Part shown: piece by piece, positions 1 through 6,163 of the stretch | How the letters are laid out: each line of letters begins with the position of its first letter | Position numbering within the stretch: the stretch's first letter is position 1 | Assembly (NCBI GenBank): GCA_044225505.1 | Contig: JBGAIN010000033.1 | Location: forward strand, 1 to 58,982 | Reading direction: 5' to 3' | Origin: Limisphaerales bacterium | Lineage (GTDB): Bacteria; Verrucomicrobiota; Verrucomicrobiia; Limisphaerales; SIBE01 | Length of the DNA: 58,982 bases | Made by a program: the position numbers and the translations under genes | Notes under the pieces: model-generated | The model's input: the letters and a program-made list of their open reading frames with translations, nothing else | Databases searched by the model: none | What the model was told of the DNA's origin: nothing

Positions 1-65
1 GGCTCAAATAATCGTGAGAAACTTTTGCCGAACACCGGACATGCGTATCTGCGGGACTGACCCCT
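1..65 (+). repeat. 233-bp RAYT-derived element, copy 1 (3' part only, cut by window edge)
   Basis: Matches the 3' 65 bp of the copies at 1475-1707 (1 mismatch) and 3147-3379 (2 mismatches); ends in TGCGGGACTGACCCCT. Confidence 0.9.
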
Positions 66-202
66 CCACTGACGCCTCGGACAAGAGCAGGCGCTCCGAA
101 TCAGCGCGGCTCAAGATTACACCACCCAAGCGCTCCGGAAGCCACTGAAAGAATGGCTTGGCCTCTGCGGATGTGTTTGCGACAAACTCAAGTGAAATCC
201 CG

Positions 203-1414
203 ATGAAAGCCATGCAGGTTTGCCGTGATTGGGCTTCGTTATTGATAACTCTTGTAGCGCTAAATCTCTCGTCGCTGTGCGCTCGTGCCGAGGTTCAACC
301 AAAGACCCAGCTTGATGCCGTAAAAAGCGCGATCAGCTCGGATCGGCTTTCAATGCAGCTCAGGGCGGTTCAGAGGCTCGGTTTGACCGCCGTTACGAAT
401 GCGGCCTGGCGGGACTCTTTGGTTGATCTTCTCTGGGAGCAAAAGAGCAGCTTGGTCAATAGCGAGGCTGTGTTTTGGCTAACGCGCCTCGGAACTATTG
501 GGCTCAGGGAGGTGGAGAGGCGAATGATAATGGATGGCAAACTCAATGAGCCGATCCTTGAGAGTGTCTCACAACTGGGAAAAACGGATGAGCGCACAAT
601 CGCTTTCCTTAATGCGAAACTCGAACAGGCCGATTCAGCCCGACTTTTCGGGCCAGAGCTGGAGGTTTGTATCGCCAATCTTGGAGATCGCGTAGCTGAG
701 CATGAAAAATCCCTCATTCAGAGCTTGAGATCCGGGAGTCCACAGACGGAAAAAACTCTGACTTTCCTCGAATACGCGCCTCCCAAATGGGGTGTCTCGA
801 AACAATTTACTGATGTTCTAGTAGCAAATCTCGCAACGAACAACTACAGAGCGGCCATGTCAGCTATGATCTTGGTTCAGCTTGGAGGCTTTGAAGGCTC
901 GATTGCAGAAACAGTTGAGGGGCTTTACAATCAGTCGAAAAGCGACGATTCAAAGCCAGCTTATCGATTGCTCTACGCCATGATCCTTGCCAAGGGCATT
1001 GAGCAGCACCGTGGAAAGTATCTCTCCGCTGCAGCCGAGTTCTTCGGGTCTGAGGATAGTTTTAGCCACACAGTCCAGGCAGCCGCGTATCATGTAATCC
1101 ACCGATTAATGGATGATGAAACAATCAACCGATTCATTAAGATGTCCGAGGAGGAAAATGACAGTGCCGCTCGCGGGGCTATTCGTTGGACAGGAATGTT
1201 GGGCCTTCGAGCCGCCGATGCCGTTCCGCCGCTAATTCGAATTGTCAGATCAAAACGTAACGACGTTATTCGGGAAGCAGCAGCCGTCGCGCTGGGTGCC
1301 GTTGCTCCGGCAAATCGCAGTAATGAGATTAGAGAGCTTCTGTCCCAGGAGAAATCGCGGTCTGTCCGCGATGCTTTGAGCGAGAGCCTTTCGTTGATGC
1401 TGTTAGAACCGTGA
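203..1414 (+). CDS. Secreted HEAT-repeat protein
   Basis: ORF 158..1414; ATG 203 gives a signal-peptide-like N-terminus (LLITLVALNLSSLCARA-E); C-terminal HEAT-like segments (AADAVPPLIRIV, VIREAAAVALG, VRDALSESL). Confidence 0.7.
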   Translation: MKAMQVCRDWASLLITLVALNLSSLCARAEVQPKTQLDAVKSAISSDRLSMQLRAVQRLGLTAVTNAAWRDSLVDLLWEQKSSLVNSEAVFWLTRLGTIGLREVERRMIMDGKLNEPILESVSQLGKTDERTIAFLNAKLEQADSARLFGPELEVCIANLGDRVAEHEKSLIQSLRSGSPQTEKTLTFLEYAPPKWGVSKQFTDVLVANLATNNYRAAMSAMILVQLGGFEGSIAETVEGLYNQSKSDDSKPAYRLLYAMILAKGIEQHRGKYLSAAAEFFGSEDSFSHTVQAAAYHVIHRLMDDETINRFIKMSEEENDSAARGAIRWTGMLGLRAADAVPPLIRIVRSKRNDVIREAAAVALGAVAPANRSNEIRELLSQEKSRSVRDALSESLSLMLLEP

Positions 1415-1474
1415 TGCCACCGCCCTTTTTGCGTAAGAGAGGCGCGGCGCTCAAACCCTCTCCAGCTCCGTCGA

Positions 1475-1707
1475 AAGGGTCAGGCCCGCATAATGCAATA
1501 TAGGTCTTGACGCTTGAGGTAAGGCAGGGGCAAGTTCTTGGCATGGCGAGAAAGCTGAGGCTGCAATATCCGGGAGCGATTTACCGCGGCGCGTCCTTGA
1601 TGATGGGCGCGGCTGGCTACGCCGCCGGATCTGTCCGAGAGTGGCTCAAATAATCGTGAGAAACTTTTGCAGAACACCGGACATGCGTATCTGCGGGACT
1701 GACCCCT
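1475..1707 (+). mobile_element. 233-bp non-autonomous element with 16-bp terminal inverted repeats, RAYT/Y1-transposase deletion derivative, copy 2
   Basis: Ends AAGGGTCAGGCCCGCA ... TGCGGGACTGACCCCT; internal 36-codon ORF 1543-1653 MARKLRLQYPGAIYRGASLMMGAAGYAAGSVREWLK; 9 substitutions vs copy 3. Confidence 0.8.
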
Positions 1708-1762
1708 AATCCACACTCTGCCGGTCAGTTGCTTGTGATGTCGTTAACGTTCAGATTCGGCC

Positions 1763-2545
1763 TTGCGCTTGATTTTGAGGGCTCAAAAGGCGCCGTATCG
1801 CAGAGACGGTCAACGCAATGATCGGCGATTTTCCTTCGAGCTGCGAGTCTTTGGCGTAGGCTACAGAGCCGTGACGCTCTCGATGGCATCGCCGTGTTGT
1901 CCGCCGATCGAACGTTCTCGCCGCCGTCGGCACTGCCGCGCGAATCCAAAATCACTGTACCGGGTTTTTCCAAATGCAATAACAGGCCATCGTTATTACA
2001 ACCCCTCCACGGGACGGTGGCTGAGCAGAGACCCGATTGGGGAACTCGCCGGAGCGTTTAACTCTTCTGGCCAACAACAGGAAAAGAATGCTCTGCCAGT
2101 TATTGTAGTCGCAGGAGGTAATCCCTACTGCTTTGCCCGGAACGCGCCGACAATCCGCTATGATGCCTTCGGGTTGTGGTGTGGTTCAGACGTGCCTGGA
2201 TTGGGATTGGACCCGACTGTGCCAGATCACCCGTTTGGTTTTGATTTCTCCGGCGCATGTGAATCTCACGACAAATGCTATGGAAGGTGCGGTTCAAAGA
2301 AGGGCGACTGCGATAGTAACTTCTACAACGACATGGTAAACAAATGCGTCAGTTACCAGCCGCAGCTCGCCAATCCCGCATTCTGTAAAGCCGTAGCGTC
2401 TCTCTACTATCAAGCGGTTAAGCGACTAGGAGATACGGCTTATGCACAGGGGCAACGTCTTGCCTGCTCTGACCGATGCTTCGTTGTTCCCAAGGACTCT
2501 CCCCCTATCATCTCGCCACCCACTACCATCATCATTCGTGAGTGA
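1763..2545 (+). CDS. Orphan Rhs core tip with C-terminal phospholipase A2-like toxin domain (true start uncertain)
   Basis: GHRYYNPSTGRWLSRDPIGE...NPYCFARNAPTIRYDAFGL (Rhs core end, DxxGL junction at 2162-2176), then a Cys-rich domain with CESHDKCY and CDSNFYNDM...C...YYQAV, typical of bacterial secreted PLA2. Confidence 0.8.
   Translation: MRLILRAQKAPYRRDGQRNDRRFSFELRVFGVGYRAVTLSMASPCCPPIERSRRRRHCRANPKSLYRVFPNAITGHRYYNPSTGRWLSRDPIGELAGAFNSSGQQQEKNALPVIVVAGGNPYCFARNAPTIRYDAFGLWCGSDVPGLGLDPTVPDHPFGFDFSGACESHDKCYGRCGSKKGDCDSNFYNDMVNKCVSYQPQLANPAFCKAVASLYYQAVKRLGDTAYAQGQRLACSDRCFVVPKDSPPIISPPTTIIIRE
1926..2032 (+). repeat. Rhs leader/core-tip repeat, copy A
   Basis: ~105 bp similar to 5052-5159, with a near-identical core AAATCACTGTACCGGGTTTTTCCA-ATGCAATAACAGGCCA. 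Confidence 0.85.
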
Positions 2546-2945
2546 CGATCTCCAGGAAGTGAGCAAAGCGGTAGGCGACGGCTTCCGATTCAGGAAGTTC
2601 GCATTCTGGAGTGGCCTTGCTTTAACTCTTGCTAATGCCGTGTTGATGGCGCGGTCGCCTGAGAATAGGGCTTCCCTGGGCGACTGGTTCGCTGTCCTCC
2701 TCTTTTCGGGTTTGGTTGGATTGCCGTATTTTTTAATCGCGGTCCTGAGACCGATAAGCAAGGTTGCGGGCACAGCGTTGTTGGTCATAACTGTTGCGCT
2801 GACGCTTGCTGCTGTTTGGACCGTTTACTTTCATCCGAGAGGCTCCGCATCCGCACTGGCGCTCATTTTCTACCCGGCTTACGCTGCGATACTTACTGTG
2901 GTGGTCGCTCTAGTTTGTTGGGGGATCAACGTATATCGAAAATAG
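2538..2945 (+). CDS. Small multi-pass membrane protein, candidate immunity protein for the Rhs-PLA2
   Basis: GTG 2538 overlaps the end of the toxin ORF (in frame with ORF 2442..2945); about four hydrophobic helices; position matches a toxin-immunity pair. Confidence 0.65.
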   Translation: MSDDLQEVSKAVGDGFRFRKFAFWSGLALTLANAVLMARSPENRASLGDWFAVLLFSGLVGLPYFLIAVLRPISKVAGTALLVITVALTLAAVWTVYFHPRGSASALALIFYPAYAAILTVVVALVCWGINVYRK

Positions 2946-3108
2946 CGCTCACCCGTAAGGAGACTTTGCTCAGATCATGGAGCGTCCAGGATATTTGATC
3001 AAAGCTCCGTGGCGATTCGCCACTAGCCCCGCGCTGGAGCGTCGGCCCACGTTTGACGAGCGCGTCAAATCGTTTGCCACAACTTGACGCGGGAATTTGA
3101 CATCTGAG

Positions 3109-3134
3109 TCGTCCGTTCATCCGGCGCGAGGCCG
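3109..3134 (+). repeat. 26-bp exact copy of an internal segment of the downstream fic gene
   Basis: TCGTCCGTTCATCCGGCGCGAGGCCG is identical at 3109-3134 and 3971-3996. Confidence 0.9.
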
Positions 3135-3146
3135 GGTGGACGTCGA

Positions 3147-3379
3147 AGGGGTCAGGCCCGCATAATGCGATATAGGTCTTGACGCTTGAGGTAAGGCAGG
3201 GGCAGGTTCTTGGCATGGCGAGAAAGCTGAGACTGCAATATCCGGGAGCGATTTACCACGGCGCGTCCTTGATGATGGGCGCGGCTGGCTACGCCGCCGG
3301 ATGTGTCCGAGAGTGGCACAAATAATCGTGAGAAACTTTTGCCGAACACCGGACATGCGGATCTGCGGGACTGACCCCT
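3147..3379 (+). mobile_element. 233-bp RAYT-derived element, copy 3
   Basis: Ends AGGGGTCAGGCCCGCA ... TGCGGGACTGACCCCT (15/16 inverted match); mini-ORF 3215-3325 MARKLRLQYPGAIYHGASLMMGAAGYAAGCVREWHK. Confidence 0.8.
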
Positions 3380-3406
3380 ACATTGCGGGGTCCCCACGAC
3401 AAGTAA

Positions 3407-3697
3407 ATTCTCCCGTTCTTCAAATGCGCTGGGTTTGATGGTTGCGGACTGTTGTCTGAGTTGCTGAAAGCAATCTTACCGAAGAACGTCACGCCCAGCA
3501 TTGTCCCCTATCCGAATGATACTCCGCACTCGTTCCAAGAGTTGAGTCAGGGAGTGCTTGATGCCGTGTCGGAAGCAACGGCCTACGTGCTAATTGTTGA
3601 ATCCTTCTCCGGGCCTGTCGCGATCCGAATGGCCGCGACGGCACCTGTCCCGCCTTTTGCATTGGTCTTCTGCGCTTCGTTGGTTTCAGGCGACTGA
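3407..3697 (+). pseudogene. Alpha/beta hydrolase N-terminal fragment
   Basis: AGFDGCGLL resembles the oxyanion-loop motif PGxDGTG; ESFSGPVAI resembles the nucleophile elbow; stops after ~95 codons. Confidence 0.55.
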
Positions 3698-3761
3698 AAT
3701 AGCAATGGTGGTTGTTTCATGTCTTGCGTGAACAATGAAATAGTGAAATCCTGCCCCGGGA

Positions 3762-4943
3762 ATGGCCAAGACTTTGGGTAAATTGCATCCCGGCAGGGTC
3801 TCCGGGCGGTGGATCAAAACGCTGGAGGGCTACCGAGCCTTCCATCCCAACCCGTTACCGCCGCTGCTGGATTGGACCCCGACGCTGGCGGCCGCGCTGG
3901 CGGATGCTTCCATGCTCGTGGGCAGACTGGCCGGTGAAGGCCGACGTCTGCCCAATCCTCATGTGCTGATTCGTCCGTTCATCCGGCGCGAGGCCGTGCT
4001 GTCGAGCCGCATCGAAGGCACGCAGACGACTTTGGGCGAATTACTGGCCGCCGAGGCCGGAGCGACCGTCGAGCGCAGCCCGGATGATTTGCGCGAAGTC
4101 GGGAACTACGTGAGGGCGCTGGAACACGGATTGAAACGGTTAGAATCTCTGCCACTCTCGCTGCGGTTGGTACGGGAGTTGCACGATCGCTTAATGGCCG
4201 GAGTGCGTGGCGGACACGCCACCCCCGGAGAGTTCCGCCGGTCGCAGAACTGGATTGGCCGCCCGGGCGAAACACTGGCCCAAGCCAAGTACGTGCCGCC
4301 ACCGCCGGACGTATTAGGAGAGCATTTGTCAGCATGGAAGAAATTCCTTCACGAACGCATGTTGCCGTCCTTGGTGCATGTGGCGCTAGCGCATTACCAG
4401 TTCGAGGCCATTCATCCCTTTCTGGACGGCAACGGGCGCGTCGGGCGGCTGCTGATCACCTTGCAACTTTGCGAGCGGGACATTCTTCCCGCACCGCTGC
4501 TGTATCTCTCCGCGTTCTTCGAGGCAACGCGATCGGACTACTACGCCGGTCTGCGTGCCGTTTCGGAAGACGGCGATTGGGAGGGATGGGTGCAATACTT
4601 CCTGAATGGGATAGCTCGACAGTCGGAGGATGCGTTGAGCCGAGCCGAGCGTCTGAATCAATTGGTTTCGAACTGGCGGGCTGAGCTTTCCGGACAGGCC
4701 GGAACAAAAGTGGCGCTGCGTCTTTTGGATATCGTTGTCGCCAATACTTTCCTTACGCCCCGAGGTGCGGAGGAAAAGCTGGACCTGGCCTACAACACGA
4801 CGATGCGAGCCATCGAACAGTTGGAGAATTTGAAAGTGCTGAAAGAGATCAGCGGAGCGAAGCGTGCTCGAGTCTATTGCGCGAAGGCGATCCTCGATAT
4901 TTTGGAGGAGCCGACGCGCCTGACCCCAAACCAAGGCAGATGA
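3762..4943 (+). CDS. Fic family protein (class II, N-terminal autoinhibitory motif, C-terminal HTH)
   Basis: HPFLDGNGRVGR Fic motif; SSRIEG inhibitory motif. Confidence 0.92.
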   Translation: MAKTLGKLHPGRVSGRWIKTLEGYRAFHPNPLPPLLDWTPTLAAALADASMLVGRLAGEGRRLPNPHVLIRPFIRREAVLSSRIEGTQTTLGELLAAEAGATVERSPDDLREVGNYVRALEHGLKRLESLPLSLRLVRELHDRLMAGVRGGHATPGEFRRSQNWIGRPGETLAQAKYVPPPPDVLGEHLSAWKKFLHERMLPSLVHVALAHYQFEAIHPFLDGNGRVGRLLITLQLCERDILPAPLLYLSAFFEATRSDYYAGLRAVSEDGDWEGWVQYFLNGIARQSEDALSRAERLNQLVSNWRAELSGQAGTKVALRLLDIVVANTFLTPRGAEEKLDLAYNTTMRAIEQLENLKVLKEISGAKRARVYCAKAILDILEEPTRLTPNQGR

Positions 4944-5159
4944 CCATCCCGAAGACGGTCAACGTGACAAGAGCTGCGCCTCACCCAGATCGCTCTGGAT
5001 TTCGACCTTGCTCAGAAAGATATGCACGGTCCATGAAAGGAGGTGCGCTCTGCCGGCATAATCGTGTGAATCGAAAATCACTGTACCGGGTTTTTCCAGA
5101 TGCAATAACAGGCCACCGTTTCTACAACTCCTCCACCGGACGATGGCTATCGTGAGATC
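4940..5159 (+). pseudogene. Dead Rhs leader/core tip, copy B, with no toxin domain
   Basis: KSLYRVFPDAITGHRFYNSSTGRWLS then TGA where copy A has AGA (Arg); similarity is lost right after; ATG 4940 overlaps the fic stop. Confidence 0.7.
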
Positions 5160-5371
5160 AGAAGGACGTTCCAGGAGAGGCTGACTCAGGGTGCCCGCTC
5201 CGGGGCGCTCATCCAGACCAAAAAGGCGAACTGGTGAAAACAGCGGCGTGGTGGCAGGGGCAAATCATGGGAATCGACCAGCGGATCGTCCGCTCGTATT
5301 TTTTGGCTGGCGATGGGAGCGTCTGTCGCAGCCATTGAATGAAAAGCTGCAATGTCGTAGAATGGAAACCT

Positions 5372-5602
5372 GTGCCACTGACACTGGACCAAATCGTCGA
5401 GGAAGCTCGCCACTGGCCGCCGGAAAAGGTGGGTGAGTTGGTCGATCGATTGACTCAGGAGTTTCATTCGTCGGATCCTGGTATCGAAGAGGACTGGCGA
5501 AAAGTAGCACGCCAGCGTTTGGCGCAGATTGAAAATGGGACCGTGCAAGCCGTCGGCGGCGAAGAGGTCTCTGCGCGCATCCGTCGGACTGTGGGGCGGT
5601 GA
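5372..5602 (+). CDS. Putative addiction-module antitoxin (TIGR02574-like)
   Basis: PLTLDQIVEEARHWP...IEEDWRKVARQRLAQIENGTV pattern; GTGA overlap with a toxin remnant. Confidence 0.75.
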   Translation: MPLTLDQIVEEARHWPPEKVGELVDRLTQEFHSSDPGIEEDWRKVARQRLAQIENGTVQAVGGEEVSARIRRTVGR

Positions 5603-5692
5603 AGTCGCGTGCCTTCCATCCGGCTGCGGATGTTGATTATCGCAATGATGCTTATGAAACGCTGGCCCGGCTATTGGAAAGATCGTATCAAA
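5599..5692 (+). pseudogene. ParE/RelE toxin remnant with internal deletion
   Basis: N-terminus VKSRAFHPAAD is joined out of frame to the C-terminal LIIAMMLMKRWPGYWKDRI; the middle of the gene is missing. Confidence 0.7.
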
Positions 5693-5870
5693 AAAGAGAC
5701 ACCTAGCGGTGTTGCCGTTCCTGTCGAGACGATTTTCGGGCTGTAACTGTCATGCTTGGTCTCAGCCGTATTTCGCAAGGGTTCTGTTTAGCGAGGCGGT
5801 GGAACGGAGGCCCGGATGTGCTTGAAACAACCAGAGGGATATAGATGAACAGGTCTGAGGCACTGCCTCG

Positions 5871-6152
5871 CTAGTGTGGTGACCGCTAAGTCCTTGCACT
5901 TTCGCGGCGAGGGTTTTTGCGCGCCCGCAAGGCGCGAGCGAGGCGCATACCCGTCCCGACAGGTCGGGAGAACGAGCGAGGAACGCGGCGGGCGCGCAAA
6001 AGAACCGCCGCCCAAAGGGTTGCGCTGAAAATGGGTCCTGGCTTTGTTGCTCCTCGGTCAGAGAGCGCGGCGGCTATCTTCCGTCGTCGCGCCTCGCCAG
6101 GATCCATTTTGAGCGCAACGAAAGTATAAGGACTTAGCGGTCACCACACTAG
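5871..6152. mobile_element. 282-bp MITE-like element with ~34-bp terminal inverted repeats and CTAG ends
   Basis: 5871-5904 is the reverse complement of 6119-6152 with 2 mismatches; internal hairpins at 5904-5928/5988-6011 and 6019-6042/6096-6119. Confidence 0.85.
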
Positions 6153-6163
6153 AGAGAAGTTCC

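Follow-up and report, generated by a model that had tools for sequence, protein, structure and literature searches.

A 233 bp inverted-repeat unit in an Rhs orphan array of a Limisphaerales bacterium is probably a gutted TIRtron

The first 3379 nucleotides of contig JBGAIN010000033.1 of a Limisphaerales bacterium (assembly GCA_044225505.1; the whole 58,982-nucleotide stretch analysed here is called the window) contain three co-oriented forward-strand copies of a 233 bp unit bounded by inverted repeats (positions 1–65, 1475–1707 and 3147–3379), with different cargo between them. A preliminary description of the window took the unit for a recombination or insertion site that builds an integron-like array of toxin/immunity cassettes, and regarded it as a candidate for an undescribed system. 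Neither view is supported by our analysis, as the unit is a deletion derivative of a known transposon type, most assessable orphan modules lack it and the architecture of the parent, the TIRtron, is already in the literature. The 233 bp unit is probably a miniature inverted-repeat transposable element (MITE) that arose by internal deletion of a TIRtron and became lodged in an array of orphan Rhs toxin/immunity modules as a mobile element with strand-specific insertion. It is most likely to be an already described kind of jumping gene in gutted form and not a new integron-like cassette system, so that an apparent novelty becomes a recognizable object, a TIRtron-derived MITE. This reading draws on direct observation of the derivation of the unit, its repeats, the census of its copies, their strand bias and their enrichment near Rhs sequence.

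A repeat search and a MAFFT alignment placed two copies at 1469–1708 and 3141–3380 (96% identical) and a 65-nucleotide 3′ piece at the contig start, which matches the other copies at 92–94% over 71 nucleotides. Compared over 1475–1707 and 3147–3379, copies 2 and 3 align without gaps at 96.1% identity (nine differences in 233 positions). Both are directly preceded by CGTCGA, and the intervals between the copies are 1409 and 1439 bp; the alignment thus bears out the preliminary description in these respects, and its account of an inverted-repeat-bounded unit without a target-site duplication also stands. The left inverted repeat, (A/G)GGGTCAGGCCCGCA, is located at 1476–1490 and 3148–3162 and the right inverted repeat, TCTGCGGGACTGACCCC, at 48–64, 1690–1706 and 3362–3378. 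Copy 1, which is cut by the contig start, consists of a 3′ end with the right repeat (98% identical to positions 175–239 of copy 2) and could be of the short or the full-length type. Copy 3 and most family members carry GGGGTCAG, which fits the GGGGWSAS core of TIRtrons, at each of their two ends; at the left end of copy 2 the sequence is AGGGTCAG. No target-site duplication is visible in any full copy, which counts in favour of the TIRtron derivation. The bases before the G-run are TCGAA or GCGAA in most left ends, and a paralogue of an IS110 gene has GTCGAA near the point where the copy on contig C245 abuts it. The conserved TCGAA of the left flank may be an insertion target or a part of the repeat; relatives in other genomes carry CGAAGGGG inside their repeats. 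An Rfam scan of positions 1–6,000 at E ≤ 1 returned one chance-level snoRNA match, outside the element, and a structured-RNA reading was dropped, as the panhandle between the end repeats was the sole structure when either strand was folded by itself (z-scores of −1.64 and −0.33).

Contig pieces listed for the public runs X1 and X2, which may be the assembly's own source, bridge three of the five element/cargo junctions (1474/1475, 3146/3147 and 3379/3380) with at least 31 nucleotides on each side. Junction 65/66 is covered by 30 nucleotides on the element side, and no bridging piece for 1707/1708 is found among the listed pieces of these runs. The bridged junctions count against a misassembly, a possibility that the preliminary description had raised.

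The unit can be traced to a Y1 transposon through its two halves. Unit positions 11–120 match the left end (90%) and positions 117–240 the right end (81%) of a decayed full-length element of 1,020 bp (C253:120126–121146), in which a multiply frameshifted Y1 gene of ∼790 bp lies between the matched ends. Since its halves match the two ends of this element, the unit is an internal-deletion derivative; it retains both repeats, the upstream region and, of the gene itself, 14 codons from the start and ∼20 from the end. The central sequence, ATG GCG AGA AAG CTG AGG CTG CAA TAT CCG GGA GCG ATT TAC, is the start of a Y1 transposase gene; the same DNA is found in a frameshifted Y1 gene at C163:31081–31512, which begins MPRKLGLEYPGAIYHVMNRGDRRE. 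In copy 2, the relic of the start-codon region occupies 1543–1587 (MARKLRLQYPGAIY) and the relic of the transposase C-terminus ends at a stop codon at 1651–1653. In a sister form of ∼310 bp, one further internal segment of the gene, equivalent to FSGRYKSLRVDGSGSGYL, has been retained. The relic frame of 36 codons is broken by insertions or deletions in two copies (C140_b and C245), and the unit is therefore non-coding. The association with a Y1/HUH transposase that had been suggested earlier is confirmed by the C253 element, with its Y1 gene between matching ends. Three runs have loose contig ends in which the right half of the element is connected to a longer stretch of transposase-coding sequence; a fuller copy may exist unassembled.

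Whole-genome BLAST located about nine copies of the 233 bp form (three on C81, two on C140 and one each on C245, C79, C219 and C64) and about 26 relatives that are longer or fragmentary (13 of these being complete copies of 302–314 bp), in addition to the single decayed full-length element. The short copies are 228–233 bp in length (188 bp for the truncated copy on C64) and are 90.8–97.8% alike, with a mean of 94.7%. Neighbouring copies are not each other's closest relatives, which argues against tandem duplication. The longer forms are located in ordinary intergenic DNA beside helicase, sulfatase, glycosyltransferase, DUF1501/DUF1800, sigma-factor and CotH genes, often at the 3′ ends of convergent genes.

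All copies are co-oriented within each of the eight contigs that hold more than one (two to four copies each). With GC skew as a proxy for the direction of replication, 22 of 25 contigs have the transposase sense on the G-rich strand (p = 1.6 × 10−4), as do 18 of the 19 contigs with |skew| ≥ 0.02 (p = 7.6 × 10−5). As controls, 53.6% of long open reading frames (ORFs; 1380/2573) are on the G-rich strand, and an unrelated MITE with 27 copies has a strand split of 11:12. This second MITE is found in the window at 5867–6156 (∼290 bp, with inverted ends of 35–38 nucleotides at 5867–5904 and 6119–6156); its 27 genome copies of at least 150 bp are at best 94–97% identical, and read depth in the runs peaks there. 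Transposons of the IS200/IS605 group, which use Y1 chemistry, have the lagging-strand template as the substrate of both insertion and excision (Quentin et al., 2018; PMC6006769). A strand bias of the observed kind is therefore predicted, with the G-rich strand probably being the lagging-strand template. Given a bias with respect to replication throughout the genome, the co-orientation of the window copies needs no cassette logic. A TIRtron family with a strong strand bias and an internal control supports single-strand, fork-coupled transposition of Y1 elements flanked by inverted repeats, a group that has received little study. The mobility of TIRtrons has been proposed, and the accessible parts of PMC3733652 and PMC6006769 do not describe a test of it.

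The Rhs core-end peptide gave 15 tblastn matches at E < 10−9 on contigs C64, C77, C79, C81, C140 and C174, 12 of which are of the orphan type, and the toxin tips of the Rhs modules in this genome include PLA2, Ntox44 and Ntox16 (Pfam). The window forms the distal portion of an array of orphan Rhs toxin/immunity modules. Seven of the nine short copies lie within 2 kb of Rhs sequence, a territory that makes up 0.8% of the genome (within 4 kb of any Rhs match the count is eight of nine); the corresponding figures at 2 kb are 1/26 for the longer or fragmentary forms and 1/27 for the unrelated MITE. The enrichment near Rhs sequence is real and is specific to the 233 bp subfamily. According to the preliminary description, copies scattered in random orientation with no enrichment for Rhs cargo would denote an ordinary MITE; the long forms are indeed scattered, but the orientation is non-random and the 233 bp form is Rhs-enriched. 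In nine of the 11 orphan modules with an assembled upstream side, the 500 bp upstream contain no element (this applies to each of the four modules on C174), and one of the two remaining elements is a long-form remnant. On C140, two elements enclose only an internal piece of the Rhs core. As most assessable modules are without it, the element does not define cassettes.

Several copies are located at points where homology between paralogous regions breaks off. The right flank of copy 2 is an orphan-module leader also present on C140, C77 and C174, minus its first ∼22 nucleotides. C245 and C219 have the left flank and the element in common and differ in the right flank. On C245 a 96% duplicate of the Rhs core begins no more than 12 nucleotides from the element end, and on C140 a 95% Rhs-core piece ends no more than 11 nucleotides from an element. 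Crossing-over inside co-oriented copies would lead to intact elements with homology breakpoints exactly at their ends, and the copies probably add to the rearrangements of Rhs loci in this way. The near-confinement of the subfamily to Rhs orphan arrays, at homology breakpoints, suggests that small repeats contribute to the capacity of toxin loci to rearrange. Segmental duplication was rejected, as both flanks differ for nearly all copies. Two of the contigs carry an additional insertion sequence: on C219 (L038:7436–8600, equivalent to C219:22435–23600) an IS110-family element lies in the truncated left inverted repeat of a short copy, and on C245 (L037:7997–8800) an intact copy abuts the 3′ part of the same IS110. 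Beyond the IS110 the two contigs are 88–100% alike and may be paralogues or represent two strains in the bin. In run X6, which is from another study, positions 3382–5670 have a depth of ∼8 with ∼1% differences, while cargo 1 and 2 are patchy at a depth of 2–4. Strains may thus differ in their cassette content, although the depth of contigs is a poor measure.

We propose the following sequence of events. A TIRtron of ∼1 kb, with a TIRYT gene between GGGGWSAS inverted repeats, would have lost its interior to give the 233 bp non-autonomous MITE, which may be mobilized in trans by a TIRYT. The family would insert strand-specifically relative to replication, as Y1 single-strand transposons do, and its copies would consequently be co-oriented. 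The 233 bp subfamily would then have lodged several times in the Rhs orphan toxin/immunity array, where homologous recombination between co-oriented copies could shuffle the modules. The near-confinement of this subfamily to the arrays could possibly reflect local spread by recombination, co-acquisition with modules, or selection as a promoter or homology module.

A number of results weigh against this proposal. A full-length transposase with the same ends, which the preliminary description had called for, is present as the decayed 1,020 bp copy on C253, but no intact cognate gene is found in the assembly, the closest genes (C163 and C253) being frameshifted. No paralogous empty site is found in the genome. 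Contigs of runs X1, X2, X6 and X10 contain neither an element-skipping joint nor a circle junction, so that the excised or circular forms anticipated earlier were not seen, although contigs drop rare forms. When the skew test was applied to 41 TIRtron loci of other genomes with flanks of ∼4 kb, which are perhaps too noisy, the split was 22 versus 19, with no bias. The nominal probability of the Rhs enrichment, ∼10−13, is overstated, as the array contigs may be pieces of one to three loci and the copies were counted as independent. Transposition and internal deletion alone do not account for the location of seven of the nine short copies near Rhs sequence. Flank searches for empty sites in two genomes of the same genus gave either no match or a 73% match in coding DNA only, these genomes being too divergent. 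The element is thus presumed to be mobile.

Integron cassette arrays have a recombinase at the array head and an attC site at each gene. A comparable reading of the window, in which the unit is an attC-like recombination site and a Y1 or tyrosine recombinase captures toxin/immunity cassettes one at a time, would explain why three co-oriented copies separate unrelated cargo of similar size, why so many of the short copies lie within 2 kb of Rhs sequence and why paralogous regions cease to be homologous in their flanks where the element ends; the array, moreover, is unassembled on its left side. We nevertheless regard it as improbable. The element is missing upstream of nine of the 11 assessable orphan modules, nothing but an internal piece of the Rhs core lies in the C140 two-element unit, intergenic DNA among housekeeping genes contains scattered sister forms that have the same ends, and orientation tracks the replication strand genome-wide. 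Copies that are 91–98% alike, with neighbours that are not closest relatives, also argue against it. Furthermore, no integrase or recombinase family was detected with Pfam among the six ORFs scanned in positions 1–5,602, and no Y1 gene was found anywhere in the contig of the window. Even less credible, and in our opinion very nearly negligible, is an artefact or trivial duplication, i.e. a repeat that was collapsed or wrongly joined during assembly of a metagenome bin, or a tandem segmental duplication. The contig does start inside a copy, several array contigs end at repeats and the contamination estimate for the bin is 4.7%; however, the flanks on either side of each copy are unique, the cargo genes occur once in the genome, three junctions are spanned by contig pieces of two runs, and copies 2 and 3 differ at nine positions, with each being closer to a copy on another contig.

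Two further readings accept the transposon origin and ask why the copies persist; both are somewhat easier to entertain than an attC-like site, and both remain unlikely. The copies may be retained because they are useful, with a transposase promoter at the left end that would read through the relic ORF into promoter-less orphan immunity or toxin modules. All nine short copies have the same orientation as the next ORF downstream, whereas most of the long copies examined point towards the 3′ end of a gene that runs in the opposite direction; the element contains no terminator-like site, TTGACA occurs in the repeats of relatives shortly before the gene, and the unrelated MITE is not enriched in the arrays, which are thus no general repeat dump. 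A simple scan, however, identified no sigma-70-like promoter inside the element (a nearby site at 3137–3166 straddles the left end of copy 3), and because the arrays are co-oriented blocks the nine copies are not independent. More broadly, a gutted Y1 transposon could have been recruited to serve as the joint between modules of Rhs orphan arrays, supplying portable homology and perhaps portable promoters, a proposal about which we are equally doubtful. If it were correct, the copies would be the means by which toxin/immunity modules, pieces of the Rhs core and further conflict genes are brought in by exchange, stacked and expressed, the subfamily would be a transposon-derived functional analogue of integron attC/Pc without a dedicated integrase, and its enrichment in the arrays would be a footprint of selection. 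We retain, as the probable explanation, a MITE derived from a TIRtron by internal deletion.

The genes between and beyond the copies in this part of the window are as follows, those with an assigned strand all being on the forward strand. Cargo 1 (158–1414) is an ORF of 418 residues from a TTG start with HEAT repeats (Pfam HEAT_2, E = 1.2 × 10−8) and a hydrophobic, signal-like N-terminus (a putative signal peptide, judged by eye); it is unique, with no paralogue in the genome by tblastn. Copy 2 is followed by the orphan-module leader (1718–1948), truncated where the MITE ends and matching C140:7295–6979 at 92%, C77:6306–6012 at 89% and C174 at 70–71%. This leads into a 5′-truncated Rhs fragment (1949–2545) composed of the core-end motif KSLYRVFPNAITGHRYYNPSTGRWLSRDPIGE (1949–2044) and a phospholipase-A2-like toxin tip (Pfam Phospholip_A2_3, E = 1.8 × 10−10; PLA2G12, E = 1.4 × 10−10). 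A hydrophobic (membrane) ORF from the ORF list, without a Pfam match, comes directly after the toxin tip (2442–2945) and is presumed from its position to be the immunity gene. These Pfam matches and ORF positions agree with the unrelated same-strand cargo (a HEAT protein, and Rhs-PLA2 with putative immunity) reported previously. Beyond copy 3, a motif scan identified a remnant of the starting motif of the leader, GTCCCCACGACAAGTAA, at 3390–3406 (11 nucleotides after the copy, one mismatch). This is followed by a gene for a Fic/DOC family protein (3762–4943; Pfam Fic_N, E = 4 × 10−26; Fic, E = 5.5 × 10−19), a second, stop-broken Rhs core-end fragment (5054–5148; 85% to 1928–2022, tblastn E = 4.9 × 10−12 with an in-frame stop), which is the last Rhs piece of the array in the window, and an antitoxin-like ORF (5339–5602).

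The leader, ∼230 bp in length, precedes the Rhs core-end motif in at least seven orphan modules and is absent from the three 'main' genes. In addition to its occurrences in the window and at the C140 and C77 positions given above, it is found on C174 and C64 and at C149:38625–38738 and C65:13044–13119. It starts with the motif GTCACCACGACAAGTAA and has a perfect hairpin (TTTTGAG GG CTCAAAA) near position 1790; its first ∼100 nucleotides are also present away from Rhs. A different repeat, here called R2, consists of two conserved segments 240–400 bp apart and occurs at L034:10884–11137 (C79:60883–61136) and in ∼30 other places. The 'main' Rhs genes on C174, C140 and C79 are immediately preceded by R2, which in many cases is also found within a few hundred bases of TIRtron or MITE copies (C253, C246, C55, C52, C150 and C147). 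ORFs that overlap R2 have no Pfam match. At L058 (C147:2888–3862), another Y1 gene with a 247-residue frame and a perfect 17-nucleotide inverted repeat (GGGGTCGGACCTGAGGA) is inserted between an R2 repeat and an Rhs gene, representing a second TIRtron type at an Rhs locus.

Relatives of the C163 Y1 protein are encoded at 65 loci, mostly in Verrucomicrobiota metagenome-assembled genomes. At 30 of these loci (including two pairs that are the same contig filed under two bins), an inverted repeat of 14–41 nucleotides spans 950–1,140 bp around the gene, and most of these repeats begin with (A)AGGGGTC(A/G)G; the other 35 have no repeat or a repeat of another span, many being truncated contigs or fragmentary matches. 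Two intact genes, L081:1589–2554 (321 residues) and L089:2498–3433 (311 residues from ATG), lie between repeats of 36 and 41 nucleotides and match Pfam Y1_Tnp with E-values of 3.6 × 10−15 and 2.1 × 10−11, respectively. The best NCBIfam match of these two proteins is REP_Tyr_transpos (NF047646) with 52 bits, under the cut-off of 80, and the IS200 model NF033573 gives 20.8 bits against a cut-off of 55. The relatives are 311–321 residues in length and share a conserved tail (…TTMTLNWIAEELKMGAGTYVSN) that survives as a relic in the MITE. Members of TnpA-Y1 subclass 2.1 are described with a C-terminal helix-turn-helix (HTH); in the proteins of the relatives, no Pfam HTH family was detected at E ≤ 0.01. 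A DNA search of 40 relatives gave only weak partial matches (the best being 74% in G002), and exact-pattern scans of metagenome contigs for the deletion junction of the short form and for the right end gave no match in either case. Rhs sequence lies next to TIRYT loci elsewhere in two of 65 cases (L110 and L131), both of them fragmentary Y1 matches and too few to weigh. At L110:2400–3000, in a Verrucomicrobiia genome, a TIRtron is nested in the transposase gene of another TIRtron, ∼2 kb downstream of an Rhs core end.

Among known systems, IS200/IS605 elements and their miniature derivatives resemble the unit in Y1/HUH chemistry, in the lack of a target-site duplication and in an orientation tied to the replication fork, but they have subterminal hairpins and no terminal inverted repeats (PMC6006769). 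Membership of this group was rejected, since the element ends in inverted repeats and NF033573 scores well under its cut-off. The REPIN/RAYT system likewise comprises short non-autonomous elements that need a related, often single-copy Y1 transposase; REPINs, however, are described as doublets of GTAG-tagged REP hairpins and not as gutted transposase units (Bertels & Rainey, 2011; PMC3116915). As the element contains no GTAG-tagged REP palindromes in inverted pairs and the NF047646 score is below the cut-off, this membership was also rejected. The rAID arrays of Bacteroidales are similar in that co-oriented small genes of interbacterial conflict are separated by conserved intergenic sequence, and are defined by a tyrosine recombinase at the array head and a short conserved motif at every gene (PMC12247911). 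The window differs from both rAID and integron arrays in that no recombinase was found among the ORFs scanned in positions 1–5,602 and most modules are without the element. The array itself is of the orphan toxin/immunity kind known from regions that follow rhs and cdiA genes (Poole et al., 2011; PMC3150448), where co-oriented 5′-truncated toxin-tip fragments keep the core-end motif and are each followed by an immunity gene, and where the arrays are sometimes disrupted by insertion sequences. Here, a specific MITE subfamily is interspersed and the modules share a leader that does not come from the main gene.

The closest likeness is to TIRtrons, in which TIRYT genes lie between repeats that share GGGGWSAS and which form moderately abundant repeat families (Di Nocera et al., 2013; PMC3733652); Quentin et al. 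(2018) equate TIRYT/TIRtrons with TnpA-Y1 subclass 2.1, with long proteins that have a C-terminal HTH. The parent family shares with them a single RAYT-like Y1 gene of ∼310–330 codons between long terminal inverted repeats with a GGGGWSAS core, a total length of ∼1 kb and repeat families that occur as single, dimeric or grouped copies. Gutted copies with gene relics, a strand bias and a link to Rhs are not described in the accessible parts of PMC3733652 or PMC6006769. The unit in the window differs from the TIRtrons described in being a coding-dead internal-deletion derivative with recognizable gene pieces, and its family here comprises two size classes, of 233 and ∼310 bp, one of which is concentrated in Rhs arrays.

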